Positions 4,677 through 46,037 of a DNA stretch of 64,000 bases are shown here, piece by piece (within the stretch, counting starts at the first letter, position 1; every line of letters begins with the position of its first letter). The notes beneath the pieces were generated by a model. It did no database searches, was not told the DNA's origin, and worked only from the letters and a program-made list of their open reading frames with translations. The stretch is from Bacteroidetes bacterium OLB10 (GTDB taxonomy: Bacteria; Bacteroidota; Bacteroidia; AKYH767-A; OLB10): contig LNBX01000040.1 of assembly GCA_001567275.1 (NCBI GenBank), positions 7,169 to 71,168 of the forward strand, given 5' to 3'. The translations under genes and the position numbers were made by a program.

Positions 4677-6029
4677 ATGGACTTAAACTTCCTAACGAAA
4701 GAAAGCCAGTATTATGGCGTGTACCTGTTTGTAGCCATTGTATTGTTTCAAATGGTATTTATATTTATACAATGGCTGATTTACAAGCGGGTAGATTATC
4801 TGTTCTACATTGGATATATGATTTCCATTGTGCTGTATGCTTTTAGTTTGTATAAACACTTGTTTATTCAAGAATTTCCTGAAGGATATAGCGCTGCCAT
4901 AGAAACTTTCTTAAAACAATCTTTGCCTTTGATTTCCATTACATTATACTCCGGTTTCCAACGTCATTTTCTCGAGCTAAAAACAAGTTCTCCCTTGCTT
5001 AACACCCGTGTTAAGTGGATTGAAAGATTTCTGATTGCATTCTGTTGTTTTCTGCCGGTGTTACTATTTTTTGAGGTAGAAAGAATTTATATGCTGCAGA
5101 TTTTTATTGTAGTTTGTTGCATAGTAATTGCAGCTTTGGTGCTAATCATACGAAGAGTTTTAAAAGCTTGTCTGCCGTTTCAGCGGTTTGCTATTGCCGG
5201 TGCATTATTTATAATTGTAGGTTCAATTCCTACCATTATACTGGGTTTTTATGAAGACAGAGGTTATGAAGTAGCCGTTAACCCTCACCTTCCGCTGATG
5301 ATTTGCGTTATTCTTGAATTGCTCACATTTACTACAGGACTAACTTTAAAATCGTACTATATCGAGAAAGAAAAAAGAGTACTCGAGAAAGCTATAGCAA
5401 TTCAGAATAACAATCAAAAACAAACGGAAATAGAGTATTTGAAAATGCGCAACAATGTTTCACGTAAGTTACATGACAGTTTAGGGGCTGAACTTTCTAT
5501 TGCAAAAATGATGCTTAGCACATTGCCAAAAGAAAAAGCTGAGACGAATAAAAAGACGCTTTCTGATTCTATAAAATTGATAGGTAATTCTATTGAAAAG
5601 GTGTATGACCTGATGAGTGATGTAAATAAAATTACACCTGAAGAGATTAATGTCATCTCATCAATTCAAACATTAATACAGAACCTTGAACCATTAAATA
5701 ATATTAAATGGAATTTTGATTATAAATTGGAAGAGGAATGTTTGTCTTTTGTTAAGCGCCAGCACGTACTTCTTATTATTAAAGAACTGATTAATAACAC
5801 TCTCAAATATGCCTCAGCTACAACTATCAGCATTAGCATAAGACATGAATTTAAGACCGTTAACATTTTTTATCATGACAATGGCTCTGGTACCGACCTT
5901 GATAAATTGTCGAAAGGGAATGGTTTAAAAAATATTAAAGAAAGAGTAACTGAAATGGATGGACAAATGCATGTTTACTCAACTCCCAATGATGGGTTCA
6001 CTGTTCAGATAAATATTTCAGAAACATGA
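4677..6029 (+). CDS. Sensor histidine kinase (7TM receptor-type N-terminus + HisKA_3 + HATPase_c), NarL-class partner
   Basis: About seven predicted TM helices. H-box NVSRKLHDSLGAELS typical of HisKA_3. G-boxes HDNGSGTD and GNGLKNIKERV. Confidence 0.8.
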   Translation: MDLNFLTKESQYYGVYLFVAIVLFQMVFIFIQWLIYKRVDYLFYIGYMISIVLYAFSLYKHLFIQEFPEGYSAAIETFLKQSLPLISITLYSGFQRHFLELKTSSPLLNTRVKWIERFLIAFCCFLPVLLFFEVERIYMLQIFIVVCCIVIAALVLIIRRVLKACLPFQRFAIAGALFIIVGSIPTIILGFYEDRGYEVAVNPHLPLMICVILELLTFTTGLTLKSYYIEKEKRVLEKAIAIQNNNQKQTEIEYLKMRNNVSRKLHDSLGAELSIAKMMLSTLPKEKAETNKKTLSDSIKLIGNSIEKVYDLMSDVNKITPEEINVISSIQTLIQNLEPLNNIKWNFDYKLEEECLSFVKRQHVLLIIKELINNTLKYASATTISISIRHEFKTVNIFYHDNGSGTDLDKLSKGNGLKNIKERVTEMDGQMHVYSTPNDGFTVQINISET

Positions 6030-6053
6030 TTTATCCCAACTAAAATTACACCT

Positions 6054-6681
6054 ATGAAAAAATTGAAAACAGTAATTGCAGATGATCATGCCATGTTTGG
6101 TATGGGTATGGCTGAAATAATTGGGCAGGTTTTACCCGTAGAAGTGGTTGCAATAGCAGACAATGGTAAAAAAGCAATTGAACAAACACTTAGCCATAAA
6201 GCTGAACTGGTGATTATGGATATTGATATGCCTGTTGTTTCAGGAATATATGCTTGTAATGAAATTAAAAGGGTTTCACCCGACACATTGGTGTTTTTTG
6301 TAACTATGATTACACAAATAGAAACCGTGCTGTCAGCACTGAAAGCAGGAGCAGATGCCTATGTGTTAAAGGGAAACAGCCTGGAAGATTTGGCTGAAGC
6401 ATTTGATTATTCAGTGAAGAAAAAAACGTCCTTTCGTAAGTCAGCAATTGCGTCATCTGGTGAGTATAGATAAAAAAGACTTTCAGGATAAACTGATTAC
6501 AGACAGAGAAAAAAATATTCTGAAAATGATTTGTGAAGGAATGACTAATGACGAAATTGCAAACGTGATTAATATTTCAGTTCGCACAGTGGATACACAC
6601 CGCCAAAATATGCTCAACAAGTTAAAGCTACCCAACACTGCAGCACTCGTAAGGTTTGCAATTGAGAATAAGCTGATTTAA
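6054..6681 (+). pseudogene. NarL/FixJ-family response regulator (REC + LuxR HTH) interrupted by a frameshift in an A7 run (~6421-6427)
   Basis: ORF 6054..6473 encodes a receiver domain (DDH…VIMDIDMP…K). ORF 6448..6681 in the +1 frame encodes the LuxR-type HTH (LTDREKNILKMICEGMTNDEIANVINISVRTVDTHRQNM). Reading back in the HTH frame hits a stop at 6415, so the join must lie in 6418-6450, where gaagaaaaaaacg sits. Confidence 0.75.
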
Positions 6682-39440: not shown

Positions 39441-39610
39441 CTTATCCACCTTAATCCTCGTGTTTTGGGAACGAATGGGCAAAAGTAAAAAAAAATGAAA
39501 TAGCAAGGTTTTTTTCTGTGAATTATCGCAAATAGTAGCTGATAATCAGAGCACAACAGCAAAAGCTATCAACAACAGCAAATGTCTTTAAATGTTTCAA
39601 CGCCACTGCA

Positions 39611-40585
39611 TCAGTGGTCGCGGTTCAGTAGTTTTTCGCAAAACAGTTTTAACTCCATGGCTGCCGATGGATTTAAGTTTAATGATTTGAGATGCTCAAA
39701 TCCTTTTTCAAAATAAGAGTGAATGGCTTTGCGTGTTGCCTCTACCACTCCGGCTTTATCAAAAATTTGTTTTACGCGAAGTGTTTTTTCTTCGGGTTGA
39801 AGCGTTCTGTTGTTATATAGATTTACAAAATCAAGATGCTCTTTTCCTTCCAGCAGGCAACAGGTTTCGGAAAACAAAAATGTTTTTTTGCCTTCAATGA
39901 TATCGCCTCCGGGTTTTTTGCCCACTTTATAATGTTCGCCATAGGCATCCAGCAAATCGTCCTGAATCTGAAATGCAATGCCAATGTTTTTTCCGAATTC
40001 ATAAATTTTTTCAGCATCTTTTTCTGAGGCTCCTGCAATCAGACTTCCTGTGGTGAGGCTGCAGGCCAGCAGCACGGCAGTTTTAAGTGTAATCATTGCC
40101 GTGTATTCTTCAGGTGATATTTCATTCAGCTGCTCATAATCCATATCCAGTTGCTGCCCTTCGCACACTTCTATTGATGTTTTATAAAACAGTGAAAGCA
40201 CCTTGCGCAGCAAAGTATCATCTACCATGGTCATTCGTTCGCATGCTTTCACAAAAAGCGCATCGCCTGAGAGTATAGCTACATTGGTATTCCACTTTAC
40301 ATGCACGGCAGGCTGATTTCTGCGTTTGGTTGCATTGTCCATAATGTCGTCATGCAACAGCGTAAAGTTGTGAAACAGCTCTATACCGATGGCAGCATCC
40401 ATAGCTTTGGAGTAGTCGCCACCAAACAATTCGCATCCTATCAAAACAAATAGAGGGCGCAACCGCTTGCCTGCAAGTGTAAGCATGTAGTCCATAGGCT
40501 CGTAAAGTTGTCGCGGCTCATGGCCAAAATGCAGTGATGAAAATTCTTTTTCCAACTTCTGCTGAAGAAACGGGATGCTGTGCAT
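39611..40585 (-). CDS. Polyprenyl diphosphate synthase (IspB/GGPPS family)
   Basis: FARM motif LLHDDIMD and SARM motif FQIQDDLLD. Confidence 0.85.
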   Translation of the reverse strand: MHSIPFLQQKLEKEFSSLHFGHEPRQLYEPMDYMLTLAGKRLRPLFVLIGCELFGGDYSKAMDAAIGIELFHNFTLLHDDIMDNATKRRNQPAVHVKWNTNVAILSGDALFVKACERMTMVDDTLLRKVLSLFYKTSIEVCEGQQLDMDYEQLNEISPEEYTAMITLKTAVLLACSLTTGSLIAGASEKDAEKIYEFGKNIGIAFQIQDDLLDAYGEHYKVGKKPGGDIIEGKKTFLFSETCCLLEGKEHLDFVNLYNNRTLQPEEKTLRVKQIFDKAGVVEATRKAIHSYFEKGFEHLKSLNLNPSAAMELKLFCEKLLNRDH

Positions 40586-40591
40586 ATTGAA

Positions 40592-40623
40592 ATAAAAAAA
40601 CAGCAATGCAAATGCGCATTGCT
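40592..40623 (-). terminator. Rho-independent terminator for the epimerase-rfbA transcript (minus strand)
   Basis: cagcaatgc-aaatgc-gcattgctg hairpin. On the minus strand it is followed by ttttttt. Confidence 0.6.
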
Positions 40624-40644
40624 GTTACAAAGAAATTAATTTTT

Positions 40645-41595
40645 TTACTTCCTTCGGTTACGAAATGCTTCAATAACCTTGCTCATTCCTTTTTCGAGAG
40701 GAGTGAGGTCACGGTTGAGCAGAATTTTCATTTTTGAAATATCAGGGCATCTGCGCGTCATATCACCTTCTTTGAGTGCAGGCAGATGCACAATGTTTGA
40801 TTTTGAATTTAGAATTTTCTTAACCATTTGAGCCAACTCAAGAATGGATGTTTCTTTATCGTTACCGATATTGATGACGTCATTCACAAAACGATGGGTG
40901 TAAAATGCATTGAGACATGCTTCAACATTATCATCTACATAACAAAAAGTTCGTGTCTGTGAGCCATCACCATAAATGGTAATATCCTGATCTAACAGTG
41001 CCGAATCAATAAATTTCGACATCACAAAGTCGGTGCTTTGTTTTGGTCCATACGTGTTGAAGAAACGGAAAATGGTAAAGTCAAGACCAAATTCCTGCTT
41101 GTAGGCACGCAGGTATGCTTCTCCCAGATTTTTTACGATGGCATAAGGCAATCGTGAGTTGAGCGGAGTAGTAGTTTCGTTTTGCGGATATTCAACAGGC
41201 TCGCCATAAACCTCGCTGCTGCTGCTGAAATATACGCGCTTCACGCCTGTATTTTTTGAAAGGTCGAGTACGTTTTTCAATCCTGTAAGATCGTTCAATA
41301 CCCATGACGGATGATCGAGTGTACGTTTTACACCTACTACCGCTGCATAATGAAATACATAGTCGAAAGCATAAGCATAAAAAATTGCAGAAATATCTCT
41401 GAAATCGTTTACATCGGCTTTTATAAATTTAACGTTGTTATGTTTGGAAGGCGGAACCTTGCTTAGCGATCCTGTCAGCAGGTTATCAACTACCACTACA
41501 AAATTGTCGGCATTATCGGCTAATTTTTCTGCCAGTGCACTGCCCACAAATCCTGCACCTCCTGTTACTAATATTTTGCTTTTACTGTTTGTCAT
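40645..41595 (-). CDS. NAD-dependent epimerase/dehydratase (UDP-glucuronate decarboxylase/UXS-like)
   Basis: Rossmann motif ILVTGGAGFVGSAL. Catalytic YxxxK region. 316 aa. Confidence 0.8.
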   Translation of the reverse strand: MTNSKSKILVTGGAGFVGSALAEKLADNADNFVVVVDNLLTGSLSKVPPSKHNNVKFIKADVNDFRDISAIFYAYAFDYVFHYAAVVGVKRTLDHPSWVLNDLTGLKNVLDLSKNTGVKRVYFSSSSEVYGEPVEYPQNETTTPLNSRLPYAIVKNLGEAYLRAYKQEFGLDFTIFRFFNTYGPKQSTDFVMSKFIDSALLDQDITIYGDGSQTRTFCYVDDNVEACLNAFYTHRFVNDVINIGNDKETSILELAQMVKKILNSKSNIVHLPALKEGDMTRRCPDISKMKILLNRDLTPLEKGMSKVIEAFRNRRK

Positions 41596-41600
41596 ATAAC

Positions 41601-42473
41601 TTATAAATGTTGATCTAATATTTTAATCAGATATTGTCCGTATCCGCTTTTCATCAGTGGCTCTGCAACTTTGCGGAGTTGTTCTTTATTGATAAAACCC
41701 ATACGGTAAGCCACTTCTTCAATGCAGCCTACTTTTAATCCCTGACGTTCTTCAATTACGTTTACAAAATTTCCTGCCTGCAACAGTGAGTTGAATGTAC
41801 CGGTGTCGAGCCATGCAGTTCCTCTTTCCAAAAGTTGCACTTTCAGTTTTCCTTCTTTGAGGTAATGTTTGTTGATGTCGGTAATTTCGTATTCGCCACG
41901 TGCGCTGGGTTTTAAATTTTTGGCAATAGATACCACATCATTGTCATAAAAATATAATCCCGGAACAGCATAGTTGGATTTGGGTTTCTGCGGTTTTTCT
42001 TCAATAGACAATGCATTAAAATCTGCATCAAACTCTACTACACCATAACGCTCAGGATCCGAAACGTGATAAGCAAATACCAGTCCGCCCTGCATGTTGT
42101 TGTTTCCTGCAAGAATCCGACCCAGCCCTTGTCCATAAAAAATATTATCGCCCAGTACCAGGGCAACAGAATCATTGCCGATAAATTTTTCGCCAATTAC
42201 AAATGCCTGTGCCAGTCCGTTAGGCACCTGTTGCTCTTCGTAATGAAAACGGCAGCCTAACTGCTCGCCCGTGCCCAGCAAACGTTTGAAGTGCGGCAAA
42301 TCATGAGGTGTGCTGATGATTAGTATTTCGCTGATGCCTGCCATCATCAACACCGATAACGGATAATATATCATCGGTTTATCATAAACGGGCATCAATT
42401 GCTTACTCATTGCCAGTGTAAGCGGATGTAATCGTGTGCCGCTGCCTCCGGCTAAAACAATTCCTTTCATCAA
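41601..42473 (-). CDS. rfbA: Glucose-1-phosphate thymidylyltransferase
   Basis: [19 protein letters not shown]-terminus. 290 aa. Confidence 0.9.
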
Positions 42474-42744
42474 TTAAATTCAGAAGTCAGGTTGTACGTA
42501 AAAATATCAATTGTGGTTTCTGAAAGCATAAAAATTACTTTCGGCTGTAAAAGTACTAATGTTCACTGATATCCGTATCTGCCTGATACCTAAAAATTAA
42601 CCGGAATATTTGCTATACAGAATTATTAAGTGATTATTGCGAGAGATAAACAAATCAACAGCATATAAAATTCTTCCTGCTTAAAAACAACCGTATAAAC
42701 AATCACCTTCAACTACTTGTTACCTTTGCAAAAAATATTTTTAG

Positions 42745-43776
42745 GTGAACCGTAATATCAGCGACCTTTCAAACCTGATGAGTAAACTCACAGTGCGTAA
42801 GGCAGCCAATTTTTCGAAAGTGATCAGCAGCTATTATCTGTCGCGACTGACAGGTAAGGCACAGCATAATGGTATGCCAGTAAGTATTTCGGTTGAGCCT
42901 ACTACCTCCTGTAACCTGCGCTGCCCTGAGTGTCCGAGCGGGCTGAGAGCTTTCAGCCGCCCAACAGGAATGCTGCAACCCGAATTTTATAAACGACTGA
43001 TTGATGAACTTGCTCCTGATTTATTGTATCTGATACTTTATTTTCAGGGCGAGCCTTATCTGAACACCAATCTCTTTGACATGATTCGTTATGCACATGA
43101 GCATAAAATTTATACGGCAACATCTACCAATGCTCATTACCTGAGTGACGACAATGCCCGCAAAACTGTAGAAGCAGGACTCGACAGACTGATTATTTCT
43201 ATTGACGGCACTACGCAGGATGTGTACTCGCAATATCGCAAAGGTGGCTCACTTGAAAAAGTATTGCAGGGAGCTGAAACAATGGTGAAATGGAAAAAAC
43301 AACTTCAGTCAAAAACACCGCATCTCATTTTTCAGTTTCTGGTAGTGAAACCCAATGAACATCAGGTGGAGGATGTAAAAAAACTTGCAGCCAAGATTGG
43401 AGTGAACGAAGTGGCGTTTAAGACAGCTCAGCTTTATGATTATAAAAACGGTAATCCGCTGATGCCTGACAATTCCAGGTACTCACGTTATAAGAAGAAC
43501 AAAGACGGCACTTACAGCATAAAAAATCCATTGGAAAATCATTGCTGGAAAATGTGGCATTCATCCGTTATAACATGGGACGGAAGTATGGTGCCCTGTT
43601 GTTTCGACAAAGATGCAAGGCATAAGTTAGGCGATTTGCAGCACGATAGTTTCCGCAAGTTATGGCATGGCAAAACATATAATCGTTTCAGGCAGGCTGT
43701 TCTTACTTCGCGCAGCAGTATAGATATTTGTGCCAACTGCACCGAAGGTGGCCGCGTGTGGACAAAAGGCAGATAG
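42745..43776 (+). CDS. Radical SAM enzyme with C-terminal SPASM/twitch-like Cys-rich domain; substrate unknown
   Basis: CxxxCxxC cluster SCNLRCPEC. Gly-rich SAM region …ISIDG…. C-terminal …W.DG.MVPCCFD…ICANCTEGG. Confidence 0.8.
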   Translation: MNRNISDLSNLMSKLTVRKAANFSKVISSYYLSRLTGKAQHNGMPVSISVEPTTSCNLRCPECPSGLRAFSRPTGMLQPEFYKRLIDELAPDLLYLILYFQGEPYLNTNLFDMIRYAHEHKIYTATSTNAHYLSDDNARKTVEAGLDRLIISIDGTTQDVYSQYRKGGSLEKVLQGAETMVKWKKQLQSKTPHLIFQFLVVKPNEHQVEDVKKLAAKIGVNEVAFKTAQLYDYKNGNPLMPDNSRYSRYKKNKDGTYSIKNPLENHCWKMWHSSVITWDGSMVPCCFDKDARHKLGDLQHDSFRKLWHGKTYNRFRQAVLTSRSSIDICANCTEGGRVWTKGR

Positions 43777-43866
43777 ACTTTGCAAGTTGTCTATTAAGAA
43801 GTTTACTTCTTAGGTTTAATATGTAAAAAATTTTTCGCACAAGCGTGGCCATATAGTGTTATCGCT

Positions 43867-43915
43867 CGCGCTCACCCCCTGCCCCTGAAGGGGTGACTGC
43901 GCGCTTTGCTTTTTG
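43867..43915 (+). terminator. GC-rich extended hairpin + T-run; likely terminator of the radical SAM gene. Contains copy 1 of a 24-nt repeat.
   Basis: cgcgcTcacccc-ctgcccctgaa-ggggtgACTgcgcg followed by ctttgcttttt. Seen directly. Confidence 0.5.
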
Positions 43916-44163
43916 ATATTCGACTCCTATGAAGTTGGTGAAATGGTTTTGTTGTGTATGGTATTAATATGTAATCTCTACGGGATTTGGAATAATATTA
44001 TTGACTTAGGGCAAGAGGTCAGTTTTTACAGGGTTGTTTCTATTAATTCTTTTTTATGTTCTTTTGTCTTAACACAATCCCGCAGTTCAGCGGGACCAAA
44101 AAGTCAAGGCTGTATAAAAACATCCTAAAAATTCAAACCGATTCTGCTGCGCAATCGAATGTC

Positions 44164-44193
44164 GCAACGTTTCGTAATGCTACGAAACGTTGC
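44164..44193. other. Perfect 13-bp inverted repeat gcaacgtttcgta-atgc-tacgaaacgttgc (protein-binding site or RNA stem-loop candidate)
   Basis: Seen directly. Not flanked by a U-run on either strand. Confidence 0.35.
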
Positions 44194-44329
44194 TCGGGAT
44201 TGCTTACACATGCTCCCGCTACGAATCGCTTTGTATTTTCCAGGCGGATGTTTTTATAAGGCCGATTATTGATTTTCGTATCTAAAAGTTTATATCAAAA
44301 TATTGAGTTAATATTTTTTTGCCTTTGCG

Positions 44330-44353
44330 CACCCCTGCCCCTGAAGGGGTGAC
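44330..44353 (+). repeat. Copy 2 of the 24-nt GC-rich hairpin repeat cacccctgcccctgaaggggtgac
   Basis: Direct-orientation duplicate of 43874-43898 with a one-base difference in a C-run. Contains the cccc-tgaa-gggg mini-hairpin. Confidence 0.45.
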
Positions 44354-44557
44354 AACACACATCGTATTTGAAGCGCGTCTGCGCCCTTTAGGGCTATGGG
44401 TGAGCGGTGCAAAGTAGTGTTCTTTTTGTTGTGTTGTAAATTTTTTCAGTGTCATTGTCTTGTCCTGAGCGGTTTTAACAGCACATTTCTGCACCTGCTT
44501 CAAAATTTATTTATCTTATTTTTAAATCGAAAAAAATTCTATTTTTGCGCCCTCGTT

Positions 44558-44628
44558 TGTCCGATGGTGTAATGGTAACACTGCAGATTTTGGTTCTGCC
44601 TTTCCAGGTTCGAATCCTGGTCGGACAA
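44558..44628 (+). tRNA. tRNA-Gln (anticodon UUG)
   Basis: Manual cloverleaf fold. Acceptor tgtccga/tcggaca with U1:A72. D-arm gtgt/acac. Anticodon stem gcaga/tctgc with loop ttTTGgt. T-arm ccagg-ttcgaat-cctgg. No encoded CCA. Confidence 0.8.
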
Positions 44629-44681
44629 CAAAGAATGGGCTGTTTCAACTTTTGAGCAGCCTTTTTTGTTTACTTCGCTGT

Positions 44682-46037
44682 ATGAAAACCACCGCCATAA
44701 CGCGTATTTTCATTGTGGAGGACGATGACTGGTACCGCGAGTTTTTGCAATATATCCTCTCATTGAACCCCGACCACGAGGTGTCAGCTTTTGCTTCGGG
44801 CAGAGAGATGCTGGAAAATATGCACCGCCAGCCGCATATCATCACGGTTGACTATCACCTTCCCGACATAAACGGCAGCGAGTTGCTTACCAGAATCAAG
44901 GAGCAGCAACCCGATTCAGATTGTATTGTCATTTCAGAACAACACAGCATTGATACCGTTGTGGAACTGCTCAAAAACGGTGCTTATGATTATTTTGTAA
45001 AATCAAAGGATATCAGAGACAAGTTGCTCAATACAATTGAAAAAATAAAAGAGCAGCAACAACTCAAAACAAAAATCTGGGAGCTGGAGCGTGAAGTGGA
45101 ACAGAAATATGATTTTCAGAAACGCCTCATTGGTGCACATCCATCATTCCAGAAAATATTTCCATTGCTGCAAAAAGCCATTTCGTCCAATATTACTGTG
45201 ATGATAAGTGGCGAAACCGGAACTGGTAAAGAAGAAATTGCCAAAGCCATTCACTATCATTCGAGGCAGAAGAAAGGAGCTTTTGTTGCTGTGAACATGT
45301 CGGCCATACCCAAAGAATTAGCCGAAAGCGAATTGTTTGGCCATGAGAAAGGTGCCTTTACCGGTGCTATACAGTCACGCACAGGAAAGTTTGAAGAAGC
45401 CAATGACGGCACATTGTTTTTAGACGAAATTGCCGATATGGACATTGCCCTTCAGGCAAAGCTGCTTCGTGTGTTGCAGGAACGCGAAGTGGTGAGGGTG
45501 GGTTCCAACAAACCCATTAAAATAAACTGCAGAATTATTGCTGCCACTCACCGCAATCTGGCTGCCGAAGTAAAACAAAACCGTTTTCGCGAAGACCTTT
45601 TCTTCCGTTTGTATGGTTTGCAGATACATTTGCCACCGTTGCGCGAGAGAGGTACTGACTGTATTCTGCTATCGCAGTATTTTATCCGACAGTTTTGTAA
45701 AGAGAATCAGCTGCCGACAAAAAAACTTTCGTCAGAGGCACAGAGTAAACTGATGGCTTATGCTTTTCCGGGAAATGTTCGCGAACTGAAATCGGTAATA
45801 GAACTGGCTGTAGTGATGGCAGATACAGAAACCATTCAGGCAGATAATCTCATTTTTTCTGAAAGTAATTTTGAAACGGAACTCCTGTCGCAGGAACTCA
45901 CACTCGAATTGTATGAGAAGAAAATTATTCTGCATGTGCTGGGCTTGTGCAACGGCAACGTGCAGCAGGCTGCCGACAGACTGAACATTGGCAAAAGCAC
46001 CATCTATCGTTTGCTGAACAGGGAAAAAGAAGGGTAA
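44682..46037 (+). CDS. Sigma-54-dependent response regulator (NtrC family: REC + AAA+ sigma54 activator + Fis-type HTH)
   Basis: REC domain. Walker A GETGTGKE. GAFTGA motif. Arg-finger region. C-terminal HTH …GNVQQAADRLNIGKSTIYRLL. Confidence 0.9.
   Translation: MKTTAITRIFIVEDDDWYREFLQYILSLNPDHEVSAFASGREMLENMHRQPHIITVDYHLPDINGSELLTRIKEQQPDSDCIVISEQHSIDTVVELLKNGAYDYFVKSKDIRDKLLNTIEKIKEQQQLKTKIWELEREVEQKYDFQKRLIGAHPSFQKIFPLLQKAISSNITVMISGETGTGKEEIAKAIHYHSRQKKGAFVAVNMSAIPKELAESELFGHEKGAFTGAIQSRTGKFEEANDGTLFLDEIADMDIALQAKLLRVLQEREVVRVGSNKPIKINCRIIAATHRNLAAEVKQNRFREDLFFRLYGLQIHLPPLRERGTDCILLSQYFIRQFCKENQLPTKKLSSEAQSKLMAYAFPGNVRELKSVIELAVVMADTETIQADNLIFSESNFETELLSQELTLELYEKKIILHVLGLCNGNVQQAADRLNIGKSTIYRLLNREKEG

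Follow-up and report, generated by a model that had tools for sequence, protein, structure and literature searches.

A hypervariable spacer upstream of tRNA-Gln in an uncultured Bacteroidia lineage carries REPIN-like inverted repeats of a family found beside DUF559 endonuclease genes

The ~780-bp spacer (positions 43777-44557) that separates a radical-SAM/SPASM (rSAM) gene from tRNA-Gln(UUG) in a 64-kb stretch of contig LNBX01000040.1 of Bacteroidetes bacterium OLB10 (hereafter, the window), a member of an uncultured Bacteroidia lineage, is non-coding DNA built almost wholly of small interspersed repeat modules. Our analysis revealed that these modules include a family of short inverted repeats that resembles REPINs (doublets of repetitive extragenic palindromes [REPs]) and whose members elsewhere flank genes for small DUF559 endonucleases. 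The copies in the window are probably orphan, non-autonomous relics of this REPIN-like, DUF559-associated family. Rather than a gene or a riboswitch, the spacer is a hotspot of repeat-driven rearrangement, at which a type IX secretion system (T9SS) cargo gene is gained and lost between strains and which will break assemblies. As a representative of the family, the locus is a decayed and ordinary-looking example, and the cross-phylum association with DUF559 is the part that deserves follow-up. Throughout, L-numbers (L001, etc.) denote related loci fetched from public assemblies and metagenome contigs.

The first-pass annotation had pointed to two direct copies of a GC-rich hairpin in the spacer, and these proved to be an exact 22-nt pair, CCCCTGCCCCTGAAGGGGTGAC, at 43876-43897 and 44332-44353, spaced 456 bp apart. 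With up to three mismatches allowed, these were the only two matches in the window, and none appeared in 100 shuffles. Each copy lies in what we term an arm, i.e., a C-run/G-run mini-hairpin (3-4 bp) followed by a spacer of 2-4 nt and GGGTG(AG); the mini-hairpins read outward as CCCC-TTCA-GGGG or CCC-TTTA-GGG, and the 2-4 bases that separate them from GGGTG(AG) are unpaired. A search for the arm pattern found three arms in the window, all three within the spacer, which make up one solo arm (a candidate rSAM terminator hairpin) and one complete unit. Specifically, the unit is 137 bp long and consists of an inverted doublet of ~80 bp (44326-44406) plus a T-rich tail of the array type (44407-44455), which marks the right side of a recombination junction described below. 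The doublet comprises a beta arm on the (−) strand (44331-44349), which holds the second 22-nt copy, a spacer, and an alpha arm on the (+) strand (44384-44401). The extra GC stems that had been noticed earlier are also real (cccgcagttcagcggg at 44079-44094 and gccctttagggc at 44383-44394), and the latter, a gccc-ttta-gggc stem, belongs to the arm that lies in inverted orientation opposite hairpin copy 2. Each unit begins with the hairpin and ends with the element that holds this stem. A near-invariant 22-nt core, GCGCCCTTTAGGGCTATGGGTG, occupies 44381-44402. The outer termini of the doublet in the window, GCGCACCC and GGGTGAGCG, face each other, and those of array units read CGCTCACCC...GGGTGAGCG; the terminal inverted repeats (TIRs) of the window family measure 9 bp, with one mismatch in the window's own copy.

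The solo beta arm, which holds the first 22-nt copy, reads CCCCTTCAGGGGCAGGGGGT on the (−) strand (43874-43893) and is part of a (+)-strand feature (43864-43915) made up of an extended GC palindrome and a T-run. The palindrome (43864-43904) is imperfect, with arms at 43864-43878 and 43890-43904 that are 80% complementary; as RNA it folds to -21.1 kcal/mol (z -3.0), and it is followed by the T-run TTTGCTTTTTG, 88 nt past the rSAM stop codon. The first hairpin is therefore a probable intrinsic terminator of the rSAM gene, judging from its GC stem and T-run. This terminator reading had been proposed in the first-pass annotation and remains plausible, although a consensus terminator scan made no call on the hairpin, whose predicted loop of 11 nt is longer than the 3-8 nt that the scan allows. 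The solo arm, which sits within the GCGCGC stem of the candidate terminator, may have been co-opted as a terminator stem that ends rSAM transcription, and the unit would have no dedicated function at this locus. At another locus (L054 1922-1964), a hairpin of 16 nt with 88% complementarity overlaps the stop codon of the gene upstream, reaches ~40 nt past it, and holds the 5′ arm of a minimal DUF559 element in its loop. Arms may be preferentially located in terminator hairpins, or may create them.

Further analysis revealed that the family is dispersed across genomes. The 22-nt core, GCGCCCTTTAGGGCTA(C/T)GGGTG, was found in seven species-representative genomes, namely, on at least 8 contigs of the metagenome-assembled genome (MAG) WAS_Bin_1, at 6 loci of a Ribe MAG (Danish activated sludge), and in 5 further genomes, the carriers including a closed MAG chromosome of 3.25 Mb and a MAG from Cyclobacteriaceae; a pattern taken from the unit interior matched 10 true metagenome contigs. 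A profile search (nhmmer) of the window and the fetched loci recovered 83 core copies, 64 of them distinct, and the window contributes a single copy, in the spacer. In the assemblies and contigs covered, the window's species has two known repeat loci, this one and a DUF559 locus (L043). Except at L036, where a mechanical ORF of 176 aa spans the two cores, the cores of every locus mapped are located between open reading frames (ORFs) of ≥100 aa. Coding potential of the core was considered and rejected: neither unit period (137 or 55 nt) can be divided by three, and the third positions do not vary.

Cores are carried by doublet units of 130-137 nt, by 55-nt tandem sub-units, and by a ~150-nt element that resembles miniature inverted-repeat transposable elements (MITEs) and has a 106-nt tandem form. 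In the Ribe_18-Q3-R11-54 MAG (L023, L026, L029, L033, L039, and L041), the ~150-nt carrier ("type B") has 17-bp TIRs (AATGTCATTAAGTTAAG) and two inverted arms, and it also occurs as 106-nt tandem copies. The 55-nt sub-units consist of a core arm plus AGGCATGTGTAAAAAAATTATT only and form runs of five at L014 (1080-1446) and L024 (5796-6059), ~240 nt upstream of a TolC-like (OEP) gene in L024 and of a co-directional, unannotated 289-aa ORF in L014. Among the three options that the first-pass annotation had offered for the spacer, a REP-like family of small palindromes came closest, in that we see a dispersed family with inverted doublets and tandem clusters; its stems and tags are not those of REPs (see below).

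DUF559 is a very large family of unknown function. Four loci fetched by the core pattern alone (L034, L042, L011, and L037) hold an ORF of 119-137 aa no more than ~150 nt from a core. The ORFs of L034 and L042 belong to DUF559 (Pfam PF04480; 113 bits against a cut-off of 20.6; E-value about 1e-33), and those of L011 and L037 were identified as DUF559 by tblastn with the L034 and L042 proteins. The family has a Vsr-like PD-(D/E)XK fold, with 3HRL as the nearest solved structure. A protein search returned 624 DUF559 homologues at E ≤ 1e-10, many of them on contigs of less than 1.5 kb, a pattern that repeats would be expected to give. All six further homologues from Bacteroidota or Bacteroidota-like metagenome contigs that were fetched by protein alone, Paludibacter and Cyclobacteriaceae loci among them, proved to be flanked, in the gene's orientation, by arms or by arrays of 105-170-nt doublet units, which brings the Bacteroidota homologues examined to 10 arm-flanked out of 10. 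The minimal case is L054, in which a 22-nt, 95% complementary inverted pair (TTGCCCCAGCCCTAAAGGGAGC / GCACCCTTTAGGGCTGGGGCAA) brackets a 121-aa gene; in L042, inverted core-containing stretches of ~35-45 nt (by eye) bracket the DUF559 gene.

The association extends to homologues from a plasmid database, three out of four of which have flanking repeats: those of Picosynechococcus PCC 7002 (pAQ6), Pseudanabaena (a 40-bp perfect and a 35-bp inverted pair), and Neisseria gonorrhoeae (110-nt repeats on either side of the gene). Picosynechococcus PCC 7002 is genetically tractable. Altogether, 13 of 14 independent DUF559 loci, in three phyla, show an architecture of inverted hairpin arms, and arms occur at a density of 5.6 per kb within 400 bp of DUF559 genes versus 0.67 per kb farther away. 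In assembly GCA_022708685.1, which shares 4.6 kb of flank with the window at 99.6% identity, a DUF559 gene is embedded in units that have 88-92% identity to the unit of the window. What is very probably the same species therefore has a candidate partner, located outside the window.

Several of these loci showed additional features. In N. gonorrhoeae (L058), the DUF559 homologue is unannotated in the record, and the ~110-nt repeats (547-659 and 1160-1273; 91-93% identical) contain palindromes of the CCCTCTCC...GGAGAGGG type. In L034, a HepT/MNT (nucleotidyltransferase) toxin-antitoxin pair (5634-6264) directly adjoins the DUF559 gene, and the region is crowded with degenerate units and fragments of DUF559 genes. 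In L043 (354-839; protein P0002), the DUF559 ORF as called runs on into the arm upstream of it and has the N-terminus MCVVTPSGVGGERER..., and DUF559 proteins in databases may therefore carry spurious, repeat-encoded extensions.

Previous studies grouped DUF559 with Vsr and the I-Bth0305I homing endonuclease in a PD-(D/E)XK clade of VSR, DUF559, 3hrl, and 3r3p (PMC3424549) and placed it among relatives of the EDxHD homing endonucleases (PMC3424549; PMC9403480). In Caulobacter, a DUF559 protein triggers an SOS response (PMC12907096). DUF559 genes were found to be enriched among predicted programmed-inversion targets (PMC9881135), an enrichment that flanking inverted repeats would explain. The literature searched contained no description of an association between DUF559 and repeats, which is absence of evidence and not proof of novelty.

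Next to its dispersal, the family is polymorphic among strains. The same-species set comprised ten loci with an identical rSAM protein, a protein that is identical in many public assemblies, each taken with ~10 kb on either side of the gene; copy numbers are those of MAG and metagenome assemblies. Comparison with these syntenic tRNA-Gln loci, an approach already proposed in the first-pass annotation, revealed flanks 98-100% identical to the window around a hypervariable spacer that in some strains holds tandem arrays of the 137-bp unit. Specifically, L003, L004, and L005 contain four head-to-tail units directly upstream of the tRNA-Gln promoter (Tandem Repeats Finder, 98% matches), L002 contains one, and L001 contains ~1.5. 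In same-species loci, another unit stands alone ~1.3 kb upstream of the array, and a gene for a 314-aa Por_Secre_tail (T9SS cargo) protein is located on the (−) strand between the solo unit and the array.

The window matches L004 in two parts, window 43601-44427 corresponding to L004 10857-11684 (the solo-unit side) and window 44332-44750 corresponding to L004 13417-13835 (100% identical). Relative to L004, the window thus has a deletion of 1829 bp that comprises the cargo gene and the array, with its junction within a unit, and the window allele is therefore the product expected of unit-unit homologous recombination. Recombination between the solo unit and the last unit of the array would have removed the 1829 bp and left the window allele, and the repeats of the window thus act as recombination substrates. 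In L021, which is 99.1% identical over window 39521-43897, the first arm passes straight into a unit and window 43898-44353 is absent, so a real polymorphism of 456 bp has its ends in the two 22-nt copies. Other arrangements, in which repeat modules contain the breakpoints, were seen in L006, L008, and L060.

T9SS-sorting (Por_Secre_tail) genes repeatedly adjoin arrays (L004 11783-12727, L006 13775-16438, L025 445-3372, L040 2215-3708, L046 5951-6385, L060 4934-5893, and the flanks of L050 and L052), and at the window's locus different strains have different cargo genes, in either orientation. This neighborhood may only reflect the abundance of such genes in accessory regions. In some strains, a segment of ~250 bp is found instead of window 43898-44331 (L001 11120-11370, L011 100-200, the 3′ end of L021, and L060 4640-4870); it contains five GTTTACA motifs and a perfect palindrome, GTTTACAC-N6-GTGTAAAC, and from these looks like a cluster of protein-binding sites.

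We also asked whether the repeats act as RNA or as DNA. The doublet folds to -35.5 kcal/mol on the (+) strand and to -38.1 kcal/mol on the (−) strand, and the full 137-bp unit folds to -49.4 kcal/mol on the (−) strand (z -4.2). Such stable folds favor a reading of the units as small-RNA (sRNA) genes or as a cis-acting structured leader, each unit providing a promoter, a ~100-nt RNA, and a T-rich end; the arrays would then be multi-copy sRNA loci beside tRNA-Gln or regulators of the adjacent T9SS cargo gene. The same reading draws on a local stem, GCGCCC/GGGTGC, in which a G.T pair has become A-T in two copies, and on arrays that lie 120-320 nt upstream of co-directional genes at several loci. 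We nevertheless regard it as improbable. A search of the window against Rfam at gathering and permissive thresholds returned the tRNA alone (the next best hit scored 20 bits versus a 60-bit threshold), and 145 kb from 20 related loci gave no matches. In a covariation test of 17 distinct doublets under a four-helix model, 88.6% of cells were paired, compared with 88.7% in shuffles, and the score was 0.064 versus 0.061, with only two pairs changing on both sides. Among the 16 copies with letters on both sides of a T-A position in the outer helix, 8 are unpaired there, with no compensating change, and core copies occur in either orientation relative to their neighbors, including between convergent genes. 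Across lineages, the stems remain C-runs and G-runs, with no drift to other complementary bases, which suggests a constraint on sequence (as at a protein recognition site) over a constraint on pairing. The expected promoter is also at issue: TAnnTTTG is the -7 promoter consensus of Bacteroidota, reportedly established in the Bacteroidetes promoter work of Bayley (2000) and Chen (2007), and a manual search for this box within the 137-bp unit found near-matches only and none that is consistent. The structured sRNA or leader that the first-pass annotation had entertained thus received no support from Rfam, covariation, or orientation.

If the repeats act as DNA, a DUF559 nuclease may recognize and cleave the arms, which would lead to their copying, clustering, and recombination, as REP-associated tyrosine transposases (RAYTs) do for REPINs; mobilization of the arms would then be driven by DUF559. 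In a broader form, which we put forward tentatively, small DUF559 endonucleases would be dedicated to a class of selfish repeats that spans phyla, namely, inverted doublets of mini-hairpin arms with a G-run tag, which they would recognize, cleave, and by cleaving copy or amplify into arrays. If true, this would provide a PD-(D/E)XK counterpart of the RAYT/REPIN pair, assign a function to DUF559, and account for hypervariable loci like the present one. A number of observations weigh against reading the window copies as relics of a nuclease-driven family. Neither the window nor any of the ten same-species loci at this site yielded a DUF559 gene by tblastn, and any nuclease would therefore act in trans. 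The fourth plasmid-database homologue, beside the BREX methylase gene pglX in Synechocystis B12, has no flanking repeats. The stems, at only 3-5 bp, are shorter than those of most described REPs. No target-site duplication was seen at any inspected element end, a clean empty site for the first arm, sought in strains with an L001/L060-type flank, gave way to a different mosaic, and the polymorphisms observed are products of homologous recombination, not transposition events. Copy numbers may be affected by the repeat collapse or misjoining that can occur in assemblies of MAGs and metagenomes, and the promoter and terminator roles in the spacer are read off the sequence only. Moreover, placement of the DUF559 gene varies by lineage (alpha-gene-beta, beta-gene-beta, and alpha-gene-alpha), which fits a nuclease gene parasitizing pre-existing arrays as well as it fits an array-making nuclease.

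This last possibility, in which the repeats are an older, independent REP/BIME-like family (BIME, bacterial interspersed mosaic element), enzyme-less or served by another transposase, and DUF559 is a free-standing homing-type endonuclease gene that targets them and inserts into them, is a serious rival, even if we consider it unlikely. Besides the varying position of the gene within arrays, it would accommodate the many arrays and solo units that have no DUF559 gene within several kb, as well as the kinship of DUF559 to EDxHD homing endonucleases (PMC3424549, PMC9403480). However, the arm sequence is lineage-specific whereas the flanking persists across phyla, so a parasite would need to retarget each time, and the minimal elements (L054 and, by eye, L042) are unit-like, with one gene and one inverted pair but no array. 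The same minimal elements speak against a type III toxin-antitoxin reading, in which the tandem units would code for an RNA antitoxin of DUF559 and the window copy would be an orphan antitoxin array. Although tandem direct repeats do adjoin a small nuclease gene and share its orientation, they occur to either side of it in 0 to >8 copies, solo copies are found far from any DUF559 gene, the fold is that of a DNA nuclease and not of a ToxN/AbiQ-type RNase, and covariation is lacking, which together make this idea highly improbable. Scarcely any weight falls on the view that the spacer is the scar of an integrase-mediated genomic island formerly at tRNA-Gln. The region beside the tRNA is indeed hypervariable, with accessory genes (T9SS cargo) in some strains, and that part of the scar idea in the first-pass annotation holds which makes the locus a rearrangement hotspot with a deletion allele formed by repeat recombination. 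The island part does not: as that annotation itself had remarked, there is no integrase, here judged from the listed Pfam families of called genes in the same-species loci (~10 kb on either side of rSAM), and no direct repeat of the tRNA 3′ end, the 3′ 22-mer being unique in the window even with three mismatches. In addition, the variable DNA lies 5′ of the tRNA promoter rather than at the tRNA 3′ end, and it is within repeat units that the breakpoints lie. Relics of a REPIN-like, DUF559-associated family therefore remain our preferred reading of the window copies. Two other candidates were rejected, namely, a CRISPR array, as the 137-bp units are 96-100% identical throughout and contain no unique spacers, and a RAYT system, suggested by a GTAG beside the hairpin on the reverse strand, as the lineages do not all share GTAG and the gene that the repeats flank is DUF559.

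The rest of the spacer is made up of other modules. A 34-nt module (43937-43970) is identical to L016 4768-4801, on an unrelated metagenome contig (blastn). A second module (44029-44133), which contains the hairpin CCCGCAGTTCAGCGGG (44079-44094), is common to L019, L027, L028, and L040 (blastn) and forms the breakpoint of the L008 arrangement, as L008 matches the window only up to 44133. From L008 position 11390 (compare window 44133 and L027 6254-6706), the rSAM flank joins a MazG-Dtd-RsgA locus inside the shared module, and this junction is either a real rearrangement or a repeat-induced misassembly. A 198-bp long-palindrome element (44095-44292) has a 95.5% identical copy at another locus of a different MAG (WAS_Bin_1; L038 561-758), with a unit following. 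At its tip is the perfect 13-bp inverted repeat (44164-44193) that had been spotted earlier and that we found to be unique in the window, with 0 expected by chance; it caps an imperfect hairpin of ~175 nt (44100-44275; z -5.8 and -7.1 for the (+) and (−) strands, respectively). Its perfection is not conserved, because the same-species loci L002, L004, and L005 have an uncompensated mismatch (L004: GCATCG...).

On its upstream side, the variable region is bounded by the rSAM gene, an ORF on the (+) strand (42745-43776) with PF04055 and PF13186 on an identical protein. The spacer itself contains only ORFs of 58-73 aa in the ORF map, each unsupported, in agreement with the earlier view that it holds no convincing gene. 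On its downstream side is tRNA-Gln(UUG) on the (+) strand (44558-44629), followed by a terminator hairpin (44637-44662) and a T-run. A match to TAnnTTTG, TATTTTTG (44540-44547, (+) strand), ends 10 nt 5′ of the tRNA start and is the probable tRNA-Gln promoter. A scan of the spacer for sigma-70 promoter and terminator consensus found none beyond shuffle expectation. A sigma-54 promoter, suggested by the NtrC-type regulator downstream, was rejected, as no match to TGGCAC-N5-TTGC was seen by eye. The mechanical ORF of this sigma-54-dependent response regulator (44652-46037) begins at a TTG that overlaps the tRNA terminator; in same-species annotations the protein has 451 aa, corresponding to the ATG at 44682.

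Compared with known systems, the repeats are REP/REPIN/BIME-like and MITE-like without being members of either class: their stems are too short and have no conserved GTAG or CGTC tag, and the repeats have neither a RAYT or recognized transposase nor a target-site duplication. Nor do they form a CRISPR array, a type III toxin-antitoxin locus (the neighboring gene is DUF559, and repeats occur on both sides of it and as orphans), an integrase island, or any Rfam family. Strain-variable copy number, deletions between direct repeats, and gain and loss of accessory genes are shared with variable-number tandem repeats and hotspots beside tRNA genes; in contrast to these, the units here are inverted doublets of a family dispersed across genomes, and there is no integrase. 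With Vsr-like homing endonucleases (EDxHD, I-Bth0305I), DUF559 shares the PD-(D/E)XK clade (PMC3424549), a small, selfish-looking gene, and a frequent location on very short contigs, but it has no intron, intein, or host-gene target and is embedded in non-coding repeat arrays. MITEs are likewise non-coding hairpin elements of 80-200 bp with intergenic dispersal, longer gene-containing relatives, and TIRs. The units are of this small size and have array termini CGCTCACCC / GGGTGAGCG, and the TIRs here measure 9 bp in the window family, 17 bp in Ribe type B, 22 bp in L054, and ~35-45 nt in L042 (by eye). Unlike MITEs, the units show no target-site duplications and have a strong tendency to form head-to-tail arrays, and the gene-containing relative encodes DUF559 only, with no recognized transposase.

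The REP/REPIN-RAYT and BIME systems are similar in their short extragenic palindromes with a conserved unpaired tag beside the stem, in their pairing into inverted doublets, in tandem clusters whose repeating segment takes in the doublet and DNA that flanks it, and in a location mostly downstream of or between genes, with use as terminators (PMC3116915, PMC3337134, PMC3733652). We find the same organization in the doublet at 44326-44406, in arrays with periods of 137, 55, and 106 nt, and in cores that are mostly extragenic. REPs are defined as imperfect palindromes with a stem of 5-13 bp and an unpaired GTAG or CGTC tag at one end, and GTAG REPs have not been reported in Bacteroidetes (PMC3733652). 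In comparison, the stems here are CCC/GGG or CCCC/GGGG and the tag is GGGTG or GGGGC; in the window, ATAG or CA precedes GGGTG, and GTAG adjoins the hairpin in one lineage only, in copies of the WAS_Bin_1 type. Unlike those elements, the present repeats are only putatively mobile. Finally, both systems have a small nuclease gene flanked by the repeats, one per locus examined here, but this gene is a Vsr-like PD-(D/E)XK DUF559 gene rather than an HUH/Y1 RAYT, with no Y1_Tnp domain in ten ORFs beside cores or DUF559 genes that were scanned against Pfam or among the called genes of the fetched DUF559 loci. The architecture shared by nearly all of the DUF559 loci suggests a second partnership of the REPIN-RAYT type between a nuclease and its repeats, built on a nuclease fold other than that of RAYTs.

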